Shown here: piece after piece, positions 11,977-14,035 of the stretch
Layout of the letters: every line of letters begins with the position of its first letter
Position numbering within the stretch: the first letter of the stretch is position 1
From: a phage
Sequence record: PZ445554.1
DNA: 64,000 nt
Reading direction: 5' to 3' (one strand)
Notes under the pieces: model-generated
The model's input: the letters and a program-made list of their open reading frames with translations, nothing else
Database searches by the model: none
What the model was told of the DNA's origin: nothing
Translations under genes and position numbers: made by a program

Positions 11977-12446
11977 TTTAAACTCTTTCTAAGCTGCTTC
12001 TTAAATGAAGCTATTAACTGTGTTTTGGTGTCAGATTCATTATATTCAAATCCTCTTTGAAGCATCTCGGCCATCATTTCCTCTTTTCCTAAACGAGAAA
12101 ATTCCTTTGATTTATCTCCAACAAAGTTAGGGTGAATATTATTTTGGGTGTAATCGGATTTTAAATAAGTAAGTAAATTTTCTAACCATTCAAGATAATC
12201 AACACCTTGTCCCTTTAAGCCAGAACGATTAAATTTGTGCTTCATTTGACCTTCTGCGGCATTGCAGAGATTACAAAGCAATCCACGTACCTTTCCTGCT
12301 TTTGGTCCATTTAATTCATGGTCATGATCAAGATGATTAGCTTGAACATCAGGATTTAGTTCTCGTTGGCAAATTAAGCATTTACCGTTTTGTGCATTAT
12401 AAAATTTCTGTTTTTCTTCTTTGTATAATTTGCCAGTCAATAACAT
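11973..12446 (-). CDS. 49: endonuclease VII (Holliday junction resolvase)
   Basis: 157 aa; MLLTGKLYKEEKQKFY... with CLIC..HLDHDH..CNLCN zinc/HNH-like motifs, recognised as T4 gp49. Confidence 0.93.
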   Translation of the reverse strand: MLLTGKLYKEEKQKFYNAQNGKCLICQRELNPDVQANHLDHDHELNGPKAGKVRGLLCNLCNAAEGQMKHKFNRSGLKGQGVDYLEWLENLLTYLKSDYTQNNIHPNFVGDKSKEFSRLGKEEMMAEMLQRGFEYNESDTKTQLIASFKKQLRKSLK

Positions 12447-12454
12447 AATAAAAC

Positions 12455-12490
12455 CCTTACCTTAAATAGATAAGGGTATTTATTATTTTT
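12455..12490 (-). promoter_or_regulatory. RBS-sequestering hairpin upstream of gene 49
   Basis: Inverted repeat ACCCTTA..TAAGGGT encloses the gene 49 Shine-Dalgarno; matches known T4 gene 49 translational control. Confidence 0.4.
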
Positions 12491-12665
12491 AAGTATTGTA
12501 AAACATTCGATGCAATCGTTTATACTGTCGAATCATCTTTTTAGTAGGACGAGAATAGGTTCCTACGCAAGTGGTCATATGAGGGTCCGTAGAATGTCCT
12601 TTAATAAAAAGTTTCCAAACCTTACCGCCATTTAACTTTTCAGTATAAACCAATTCGGTTTTCAT
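12489..12665 (-). CDS. small ORF (58 aa) whose C-terminal 15 aa duplicate the pin C-terminus
   Basis: Hand-translated MKTELVYTEKLNGGKVWKLFIKGHSTDPHMTTCVGTYSRPTKKMIRQYKRLHRMFYNT; AAGG RBS; last 46 nt are a ~89% copy of the pin 3' end. Confidence 0.35.
   Translation of the reverse strand: MKTELVYTEKLNGGKVWKLFIKGHSTDPHMTTCVGTYSRPTKKMIRQYKRLHRMFYNT
12491..12536. repeat. 46-nt imperfect direct repeat, copy A (copy B at 12707-12752 is the pin 3' end)
   Basis: 41/46 identical; 4 of 5 differences synonymous in the encoded MIRQYKRLH(Q/R)MFYNT. Confidence 0.8.
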
Positions 12666-12676
12666 TAAAATGCCTT

Positions 12677-12779
12677 GTCAGAAAAAGAATTTTGAGTTTT
12701 TTTTTTCAAGTATTATAAAACATTTGATGCAATCGCTTATATTGCCGAATCATTTGGTCAGAAAAAGAATTTTGAGTTT
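12677..12779. repeat. perfect 23-nt direct repeat pair (12677-12699 and 12757-12779)
   Basis: GTCAGAAAAAGAATTTTGAGTTT occurs twice, flanking copy B of the 46-nt repeat; second copy encodes ETQNSFSD of pin. Confidence 0.85.
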
Positions 12780-13191
12780 CAAGCCATTCAATATATTCTG
12801 CCGCAGCTTGCATCAGGTTACCTTCATAATCATCAATATCTTTTTTCAATGCCACTTTAGCTAATGCATATGAAATACGTTCACCTTGAAAAGCGGCTTT
12901 AGGCTTCTGAACATCTTGGCTAGTTCTCTCTACAACTTCCTCGATTTCACCATTTTCAACGGATTCAGTATTCCACAAACACCAATACGTAATTGGCTTA
13001 TCATAGATGTTAATAATCTTTCCGTCGGAAAGTTCAATTTCAATAATTCCAGTGTCAGGCTCTATATCATCTTCACATTCTTTTGCAAGTTCACGAACTT
13101 TAAAGACAGTACCTGCACTAAGTTCCGGCCAGTAATTACATAGCCCTGTATCAACACGATTAATTCTAAACCACTTATCTACTGTAATCAT
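12706..13191 (-). CDS. pin: protease inhibitor Pin-like protein
   Basis: 161 aa from internal Met (MITVDKWF...) with GGAG RBS; position between 49 and nrdC as in T4. Confidence 0.7.
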   Translation of the reverse strand: MITVDKWFRINRVDTGLCNYWPELSAGTVFKVRELAKECEDDIEPDTGIIEIELSDGKIINIYDKPITYWCLWNTESVENGEIEEVVERTSQDVQKPKAAFQGERISYALAKVALKKDIDDYEGNLMQAAAEYIEWLETQNSFSDQMIRQYKRLHQMFYNT

Positions 13192-13314
13192 GTCCCATCT
13201 CCATATCAATTAAGTCATTTATCGTTGGTTCATTATATACTGTTTCTTCATCAGTGTAAACCGGTTCTTCCGGCTCTGGCTCTACAGTTTCCCATCTAGC
13301 CGCCCACCAAGGTT

Positions 13315-13646: not shown

Positions 13647-13856
13647 TTAATTTCGCAATTTATTAAGTTCTTCATAATCAATCCAGGATTCTAATCCTGA
13701 TGGCAAATCAGATTCAATTTCCCACAGAAGTTCTTCAATTTTATGAAGACGATCTAATTCTTCAGCTGGAATAGTAACCATTGATGGAGCTCTTGATACA
13801 CTAATATCGTAAATCATATTTACCCCAGTTTGACCATACAATCGCCGTATTTCCAC
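13647..13856 (-). CDS. hypothetical protein
   Basis: 69-aa ORF. Confidence 0.5.
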   Translation of the reverse strand: MEIRRLYGQTGVNMIYDISVSRAPSMVTIPAEELDRLHKIEELLWEIESDLPSGLESWIDYEELNKLRN

Positions 13857-14035
13857 TTAGAAATAGACTTTTCGCCGTTAGAATAATAAACTTCGAGTTT
13901 AGCACGATTATTTTTAATTTGAATAACCTTGGCTGTCATTAAAGTTCCATACCCATAGTAAACTGCAACTTCATCACCTACATATACCGCGCTTCCGCGG
14001 TAATCATGGATATAATCAGTTCCTTCGAGCATCAT
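13820..14035 (-). CDS. hypothetical protein
   Basis: 71-aa ORF; 4-nt overlap with nrdC. Confidence 0.5.
   Translation of the reverse strand: MMLEGTDYIHDYRGSAVYVGDEVAVYYGYGTLMTAKVIQIKNNRAKLEVYYSNGEKSISKWKYGDCMVKLG

Follow-up and report, generated by a model that had tools for sequence, protein, structure and literature searches.

In phage T4, deletions and duplications at short direct repeats are familiar from the classical rII deletion studies. In T4-type phages, short conserved sequences beside non-essential open reading frames (ORFs) serve as recombination sites in PeSL shuffling (Arbiol et al. 2010, PMC2839356; Comeau et al. 2014, PMC4122927), where the PeSL is an intergenic cassette with a strong sigma-70-like promoter and a terminator stem-loop, and recombination leaves closely related phages with alleles that differ by insertion, deletion, or replacement (PMC2839356; PMC4122927). 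The locus considered here lies in a stretch of 64,000 nucleotides (nt) of phage DNA, record PZ445554.1, hereafter the window, and comprises pin, the gene of the host Lon protease inhibitor PinA, a small ORF of 58 amino acids (aa), and gene 49, which encodes endonuclease VII. The region is that of a Tequatrovirus (T4-like phage), the top DNA matches being the coliphages APTC-EC-2A, WL-3, and G9062, with 98.5-98.8% identity. From comparison with related sequences, the T-even pin/small gene/gene 49 junction is very probably structurally polymorphic, the window carrying one of its alleles.

Two sets of repeats mark this junction in the window. A direct repeat of 57 nt (12480-12536 and 12697-12753) is 86% identical, and a perfect pair of 23-mers is located at 12677-12699 and 12757-12779. 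Read along the coding strand, the order is pin, the first 23-mer (X1), the codon CAA, a pin-borne tail (T1), TGA, an A-run, the second 23-mer (X2), AAGGCATTTTA, the small-ORF ATG, the body of the small ORF (U, 43 codons), its own tail (T2), TAA, and the gene 49 hairpin. X2 stands 6 nt past the pin stop, within a run of ten A residues (A10), and no further copy of the 23-mer was found in the 64-kb window with 2 mismatches allowed, the shuffles giving 0/100. In 100 shuffles of 12000-13200, the best direct pair of 46 nt had 16 mismatches, compared with 5 observed. The repeat search and the shuffles thus confirm the preliminary description, in which a repeat and a perfect 23-mer surround an ORF of 58 aa lying between pin and gene 49, although the pairing given there was off by one base register: 12707-12752 pairs correctly with 12490-12535, at 6 mismatches, one of them the G/A of the stop codon. 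The count of changes given there holds for the 15 sense codons (12709-12753 versus 12492-12536), where 5 sites vary, 4 without effect on the protein and one with a change from Q to R, and where TGA and TAA are the respective stops.

Within 12447-12800 no promoter-like site was found on the coding strand, and the sole stem-loop is the single-copy gene 49 leader. A PeSL as the explanation of the repeats was dropped, since the repeats are coding and contain no promoter-like site. Likewise, the insertion of a homing endonuclease or other mobile cassette was discarded because the extra DNA has no nuclease or other mobility gene and encodes only the 58-aa protein, which has neither a nuclease family match nor a significant fold match.

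The 58-aa ORF matches Pfam PF23945 (DUF7279) with 62.7 bits (cut-off 24.5) over residues 7-56 in a model of 53 positions, and phrog_3272 with E = 3.4e-34, covering 1-58 of 59. The search of phage proteins proposed in the preliminary description uncovers a conserved family, with 370 phage records matching the small ORF in a translated search, 111 of them at 99% identity or more and 62, all A alleles as defined below, at 90-95%, down to 38% in other genera. The ORF is 100% identical to RB32ORF078c (0/177 nt differ), whose GenBank note, 'similar to RB69ORF087c, JS98orf087clike, pin', indicates that the resemblance to pin had already been noticed, and no explanation of this resemblance was found in the literature searched, nor was anything found there on DUF7279 or on the ORF names. 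Among the fetched loci there are 23 intact homologues, and the ratio of nonsynonymous to synonymous divergence (dN/dS) is 0.06-0.5 for each pair with an estimable dS, in three genera, synonymous sites being near saturation between genera. Judged by its sequence, the small ORF is a genuine gene under purifying selection, and it does have the ribosome-binding site of its own that had been claimed, namely AAGG 7 nt ahead of the ATG. Its position immediately upstream of gene 49 is shared by Dhakavirus JS10, which lacks an intact pin, by Mosigvirus phiC120 and RB69, and by PECP20, which lacks pin; in Gelderlandvirus UTK0003 the small ORF adjoins a 49.1-like gene, gene 49 not being adjacent. An exhaustive profile search of 1.8 billion representatives returned 9 hits, of which only five (29-61 aa) seem to be genuine members or fragments, which makes DUF7279 a tiny family, confined to T-even-type phages.

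An AlphaFold2 (AF2) model of the small protein, built with 15 family sequences, has a predicted local distance difference test score (pLDDT) of 89 and contains strands at residues 2-9, 15-22, and 31-36 and a C-terminal helix at 42-56; according to this model, the duplicated tail would be the C-terminal helix. Foldseek searches with the model gave nothing significant against PDB (best E = 0.28, a weak resemblance to double-stranded RNA-binding domains) and only family members (phages S16 and Merlin) against BFVD. A fold-based function for the protein was therefore abandoned, the model being confident and the Foldseek searches without a significant match.

The profiles also tell which of the two genes owns the tail. 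PF10465 (Inhibitor_I24) matches pin with 155.9 bits over residues 4-140 and phrog_2167, a model of 146 positions, covers residues 1-146, while pin residues 146-161 match positions 43-58 of phrog_3272. The window pin lacks the native C-terminus ..LE.QL.FSD[RKE]AF-stop and reads ..ETQNSFSD followed by QMIRQYKRLHQMFYNT, the native end being present only as a non-coding remnant at 12665-12699. Pins in 44 IMG/VR loci anchored on gene 49 end in ...FSDRAF, ...FSDKAF, ...FSDEAF, ...NSRKF, or ...ERRLS, none of these 44 bearing the tail, and the pins of at least five clades end in FSD[RKE]AF or ERRLS, never with the tail. Since the tail belongs to the small-ORF profile, the Pin profiles end earlier, and the small ORF has the tail where pin does not, the tail is evidently native to the small gene, and pin, not the small ORF, is to be regarded as the chimera. 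This reverses the preliminary description, in which a cassette with the small ORF had been inserted between pin and gene 49 and had taken a copy of the pin 3' end, giving a chimeric small gene. Such an insertion is what a comparison with T4 only would suggest, because T4 has no small ORF and its pin adjoins gene 49, and the extra DNA is indeed flanked by direct repeats. However, it is highly improbable: the small ORF is a full-length member of DUF7279/phrog_3272 with the tail in its family profile and not in the Pin profiles; it has the tail in genera with a tail-less pin or without pin; unfused Tequatrovirus alleles (EP01, SP1, and others) combine a tailed small ORF with a tail-less pin; and the second 23-mer runs on into ..KAF-stop and TAATG, which is the native end of pin.

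At 22 Tequatrovirus loci, anchored on the gene 49 ATG and read at each junction, at least five structural alleles were distinguished, and these bear out the earlier idea that the repeats are a footprint of recombination. Allele A (EP01, GRNsp7, UFV06, SA20RB, and, with diverged sequence, SP1) has a 148-aa pin ending in ..SFSDRAF-stop (..SDRTF-stop in SP1), a TAATG overlap, the small ORF, and the gene 49 leader. In allele B (T4, T2, RB18, PST, and four IMG/VR contigs), pin reads ..SFSD[R/Q][M/K]I.QYKRL..., and the T4 junction, GACCGA joined to ATGATT, equals the EP01 sequence minus 137 nt, an in-frame fusion. Allele C (the window, RB32, BCPSen_003, CAM-21, IMGVR10, APTC-EC-2A, and MLP2) consists of the fused pin, the A-run, the X2 remnant, and the small ORF, which is intact except in MLP2, where a 2-nt deletion shortens it to 40 aa. 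Allele D (HY03, 11B_SA_NWU, and ECP2301) has a short pin, the small ORF being cleanly deleted between TTTTAAT and TTTTACAAT, at TTTTA(C)AAT. In allele E (Ec_YwIITB1), AAAA(G)AT marks the join between the body of the small ORF and a segment made up of the last 14 nt of the 23-mer and T1, with the tail out of frame; the frameshifted ORF extends into gene 49. Since alleles B and D lack the small gene and MLP2 and Ec_YwIITB1 have it disrupted, it is dispensable; such disruption in close relatives, which had been named in the preliminary description as a refuting condition, does occur, but is rare compared with the 111 records at 99% identity or more.

Rough frequencies, taken from a systematic 60-row sample of 639 records, are about 18% for allele C, 12% for A or E, 42% for B, and 7% for D. 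The 111 records with at least 99% identity correspond to allele C plus at least one A-type record (SP1) with the same protein, in agreement with the sampled frequencies, and the window arrangement is found in over 100 GenBank genomes (roughly 110-120), RB32 among them. These counts leave next to no chance that the arrangement is an artefact of assembly or sequencing, a doubt raised by the A10 run, which is unique to the window, the same run being A6 in six relatives (RB32, BCPSen_003, CAM-21, IMGVR10, APTC-EC-2A, and MLP2). The arrangement recurs in independently sequenced genomes, at approximately 11/60 of the sampled records, RB32 having been deposited in 2006, and 111 records carry the window-type protein; an error could affect nothing but the A-run length. 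All the best database matches are 3-5 nt shorter than the window, and the A10 could reflect slippage that lengthened the run or a mistake in sequencing the homopolymer. Read in the -1 frame, the A-run (12697-12706) would connect pin to the ..TQNSFSDKAF-stop remnant.

Natural recombinants show the interconversion of these alleles. PST, a B-type phage, has a T1-type start (CAAAAGATTCG) followed by T2 sequence and the TAA stop, and is the product of a T1/T2 crossover in a C allele. Moreover, the pin bodies of CAM-21 (C) and IMGVR7 (B) are identical (0/416 nt different), as is T1, the sole difference being the block formed by the A-run, X2, U, and T2. Parallel events are found in another genus. 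In Mosigvirus phiC120 and RB69, pin lies between two DUF7279 paralogues, located in phiC120 at 606-776 and 1201-1380 of locus L004; in the RB69 locus (L063) the upstream paralogue is annotated only as a truncated ORF089c. PECP20 (L005, 1201-1371), without pin, follows the upstream paralogue as far as CATCGTAACTTTTATA and continues with the last codons of the downstream paralogue and the gene 49 leader, the result of a tail-to-tail crossover of the two DUF7279 paralogues. Phage phiE142 is likewise without pin and carries a tail-to-tail recombinant of both paralogues. In a Logan metagenomic contig (SRR20302901; L068, 1201-1626; protein P0050), a Mosigvirus-type pin ends in ..EYLERR joined to FHRDFYNVY with gene 49 directly next, and the junction, AGACGTTT joined to TCATCG, is a deletion at the 6-nt microhomology ACGTTT that places pin in frame with the last 9 codons of the small ORF. 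By its junction, this contig contains a second, independent pin-tail fusion.

The sharpness of these junctions also bears on whether the two tails could be an ancient homologous C-terminal helix shared by both proteins and kept alike by selection or gene conversion, with no fusion at all. Both copies are in frame and read as protein ends, and the motif is conserved at the protein level across genera in the small ORF; nevertheless, pins lack the motif save for the Tequatrovirus fused alleles and the one Mosigvirus-type fusion with its visible DNA junction, the DNA of T1 shares 86-98% identity with small-ORF tails, a similarity that breaks off sharply at the fusion codon, and nonsynonymous changes build up in the pin-borne copy, all of which makes a shared ancient helix barely credible.

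Two further chimeric proteins were seen in European Nucleotide Archive (ENA) metagenomes. P0049 (191 aa) has an upstream-type DUF7279 in frame with a full-length Mosigvirus pin (..RNFYRGYDMNISDTRGKW..), retaining both Pfam domains, and could be a real read-through fusion or a stop-codon sequencing error. P0042 (142 aa) combines the N-terminal half of a Tequatrovirus pin with a Peptidase_S24-like (PF00717) segment and is another chimeric pin, which may have arisen in assembly.

A history in four steps, in which pin captured the tail of the small gene and the window joins two parents, would account for the window allele and seems to us quite probable. First, as comparison shows, an ancestral short pin ending in ..FSD[RK]AF-stop overlapped the 58-aa DUF7279 gene by its stop (TAATG), the gene 49 leader hairpin following. 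Second, as the T4 junction shows, in a Tequatrovirus ancestor a 137-nt deletion took away the last three codons and the stop of pin together with the first 43 codons of the small gene, placing pin in frame with the last 15 codons of the small gene and giving the 161-aa pin of T4. Third, the fused pin would have been joined, within a short A-run, to an unfused pin 3' end (the 23-mer and ..KAF-stop) and an intact small gene supplied by a diverged, SP1-like phage, so that fused pin and small gene are now together and both the 23-mer and the tail are doubled. Fourth, as the natural recombinants show, the repeats serve as substrates for more recombination: a tail-to-tail crossover removes the small gene, as in PST, and a 23-mer crossover would bring back the unfused layout. 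The small gene of the window would be translationally uncoupled from pin and would depend on the AAGG Shine-Dalgarno sequence of the remnant.

The third step leans on the different origins of the repeats. X2 and the next 11 nt are collinear with an unfused pin 3' end through the TAATG overlap, the window reading ..SDKAF-stop. T1 carries GRNsp7-type synonymous variants (CGG CAA TAT AAG), the R10Q change common to all fused pins, and one synonymous change, and T2 is the SP1/RB32-type allele (CGA CAG TAT AAA ..TAA). The dS between T1 and T2 is 0.79, whereas X1 and X2 agree at 23/23 positions, and diverged tails beside identical 23-mers point to two different parents rather than to duplication inside a single genome. 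In SP1 the layout is unfused, the small ORF is 3/177 nt from that of the window, and the AGGACA is the same as that after X2 in RB32; SP1 could be either the right-hand parent or a revertant from a C allele. The join falls where both parents carry A residues, in ..ACTTGAAA(A) and GAAACTC.. (TGAAA(A) and GAAACTC). The change from CGAGCA to AAGGCA or AGGACA after X2 was considered as selection for a new Shine-Dalgarno sequence and was dropped, being kept only as a possibility, because the AGGACA of SP1 is the coding end (R-T-F-stop) of a diverged short pin and AAGGCA still encodes K-A-F-stop.

T4 and T2 keep at the fusion point the CGA codon of the unfused allele, and all C alleles have CAA, a pattern that fits an order in which the fusion came first and the small gene was re-acquired later; on balance, this order is slightly favored. 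The alternative is that the window-type allele is the older one in Tequatrovirus, made in one genome by a double template switch or by a duplication with internal deletion, the T4 and SP1/EP01 types being later repeat deletions. A T1 x T2 crossover gives the T4-type layout, and PST shows that it has occurred; an X1 x X2 crossover reproduces the layout of SP1 exactly, down to AGGACA and a small ORF of the window type; and the window-type allele is common among the sampled records. Nevertheless, we consider this course unlikely. Copies made within a genome start identical, yet T1 and T2 differ at 4 of approximately 8 synonymous sites while the 23-mers are the same; T1 matches a different circulating small-ORF allele; the unfused CGA persists in T4 and T2, and no window-type allele has it; the outgroup genera have the unfused layout; and EP01-type small ORFs, with dS of 0.22-0.26, have diverged too far for a recent derivation. 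A phylogeny of the pin body for ordering the alleles was abandoned, as comparison of pin bodies revealed a mosaic with no partition by allele type.

Selection appears to act differently on the two tails. The synonymous bias between T1 and T2, which the preliminary description had read as a sign of translation of both copies, reaches nominal significance (P = 0.006; 0.035 for transitions only), but is best explained as the divergence of two small-ORF alleles. Small-ORF tails show 4 synonymous changes, one stop-codon switch, and 1 altered codon (UFV06), whereas in the tails carried by pin 5 changes are nonsynonymous (R10Q in all; M1K, M1T, R3Q, and H9N) and 1 is synonymous, a contrast drawn from few events (Fisher P = 0.08). 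With its mostly nonsynonymous changes, the captured tail looks relaxed or re-adapting, not conserved.

Besides the small number of these events, several points weigh against the four-step history. The order in the third step may be the reverse, as the window type could predate the T4 type and is able to yield both other layouts by repeat recombination, and SP1 could be a derivative of a window-type allele. A join at microhomology predicts A3-A6, so the A10 of the window needs extra slippage or a homopolymer sequencing error, and no obvious microhomology was found at the ends of the 137-nt fusion deletion. In addition, the allele frequencies are those of the 60-row sample plus 22 fully read sequences only.

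Lon inhibition has been demonstrated biochemically for T4 PinA only, and the PinA biochemistry found in the literature was all performed on the fused T4 protein P07068 (PMC8835725); nothing on the C-terminus was found in these PinA papers. An AF2 model of the fused pin is of low confidence and uninformative, with a pLDDT of 63 overall and of about 50 in the C-terminal part, the tail merely being drawn as a continuation of a long helix. It is conceivable, if decidedly doubtful, that the small DUF7279 protein is a partner of Pin, for instance a co-factor that blocks Lon or another protease, with the basic C-terminal helix as its active piece. A partnership of this kind, with the same slender prospects, would account for the ancestral translational coupling and for the in-frame capture of the helix at least twice independently, in Tequatrovirus and in the Mosigvirus-type contig, with the remainder of the small gene being lost.

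All genes of the region lie on the minus strand, in the order nrdD, gene 49, the 58-aa ORF, pin, 49.1, 49.2, and further genes to nrdC, and the coordinates of the features discussed are collected below.

Table. Features at and around the pin/gene 49 junction of the window, in window coordinates.
Feature	Position	Strand	Basis
nrdD, uninterrupted ORF, 605 aa	10159-11976	-	
Gene 49 (endonuclease VII), 157 aa	11973-12446	-	ORF list; 99-100% identical to T4-like gp49; annotated in T4, RB32, and others
Gene 49 leader hairpin, spanning the gene 49 Shine-Dalgarno and AUG; core stem-loop 12453-12477	12445-12486	-	RNA fold
58-aa gene of the DUF7279/phrog_3272 family, a conserved resident upstream of gene 49	12489-12665	-	Profiles, homologues, dN/dS, AF2 model
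T2, native small-gene tail (MIRQYKRLHRMFYNT + TAA), predicted C-terminal helix	12489-12536	-	Repeat; helix 42-56 in model
Remnant of unfused (short) pin 3' end: X2 (12677-12699), AAGGCATTT, TAA overlapping the small-gene ATG	12665-12699	-	Collinearity with short pins
A10 run, join of fused-pin stop and X2, putative junction of two parental arrangements	12697-12706	-	Allele comparison
T1, small-gene tail captured by pin (MIRQYKRLHQMFYNT + TGA), last 15 pin codons	12706-12753	-	Repeat; phrog_3272 match
X1, 23-mer in its native place within pin (codons ..ETQNSFSD), just ahead of the fusion point	12757-12779	-	Repeat search
pin (PinA, host Lon protease inhibitor), 161 aa, fused form (body + captured tail)	12706-13191	-	Pfam, phrog, annotation of relatives

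The fusion point is the codon CAA at 12754-12756, the same point as in T4. The remnant, which reads ..TQNSFSDKAF-stop and now forms the spacer and Shine-Dalgarno sequence (AAGG) of the small gene, is collinear with the pin end of EP01, GRNsp7, and SA20RB (..SDRAF-stop, TAATG) and of SP1 (..SDRTF-stop). The hairpin of the gene 49 leader, which was correctly placed directly downstream in the preliminary description, folds with -20.4 kcal/mol (z = -4.17), scores as terminator-like at 12477-12453, and has a late-promoter-like motif, AATAAATA, within its 5' arm; we take it to be the element of Barth et al. 1988, a paper on gene 49 regulation (ref. 60 of PMC2988022). The leader is nearly invariant across genera and is intact in every structural allele of both genera. 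The rearrangements are ordinary scars that illegitimate and homologous recombination have left in a region that is not essential, the gene 49 leader always being spared, with nothing mechanistically special.

Several other features of the region were observed. At pin codons ~112-120 (window 12830-12860), the window has the variant ..AKVALKKDIDDYEG.., compared with ..AKLAAQENNDGYEG.. in T4, RB32, and most others; this variant also occurs in APTC-EC-2A (allele C) and, nearly identical, in 11B_SA_NWU (allele D, ..AKSALKKDIDDYEG..) and several 148-aa pins, which is a further sign of mosaicism inside pin. A near-consensus promoter of the sigma-70 type (TTTACA-17-TATAAT, 11/12 matches) lies on the minus strand at 13232-13260, within 49.1 and upstream of pin, and is also annotated as a promoter in phage SA20RB. 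At 13647-14035, between 49.2 and nrdC, the place of the single T4 gene 49.3 is taken in the window by two small ORFs, of 69 and 71 aa, that overlap, and nrdD is uninterrupted in the window, whereas that of T4 is split by a group I intron carrying I-TevII.

The last 15 residues of T4 PinA are a helix from a neighbor gene that T4 has lost, which corrects the reading of a textbook phage gene. Moreover, natural 148-aa pins without the helix are common and offer a natural experiment in which short and fused pins, with or without the small protein, can be compared for Lon inhibition. The locus also provides a compact case of T-even phages losing, fusing, and regaining small accessory genes at short repeats while the adjacent regulatory element is spared, documented by at least five alleles and two independent fusions and requiring no new mechanism.

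Compared with T4 pin/PinA (PF10465, phrog_2167), the window pin has the same length of 161 aa, the same fusion point, and the same captured tail of 15 codons, the body differing at 38/416 nt. However, T4 has lost the small gene, so that its pin adjoins gene 49, whereas the window has the remnant of an unfused pin and an intact small gene, and many relatives, unlike both, have a 148-aa pin without the tail. The small gene itself shows no difference from RB32ORF078c, RB69ORF087c, and the JS98 ORF087c-like gene, which are of the same family. As in the T4 rII-type deletions, several allele junctions fall at microhomologies of 3-8 nt (TTTTA(C)AAT, ACGTTT, AAAA(G)AT, and the A-run), but here they are natural alleles fixed in wild phages, two of them giving in-frame gene fusions. 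PeSL-mediated modular shuffling is the closest described process. Like PeSLs, the conserved tail of the small ORF and the leader of gene 49 are found repeatedly at the borders of alleles, here in two genera; unlike PeSLs, the repeated units of the window (tail and 23-mer) consist of coding sequence and lack a promoter-like site.

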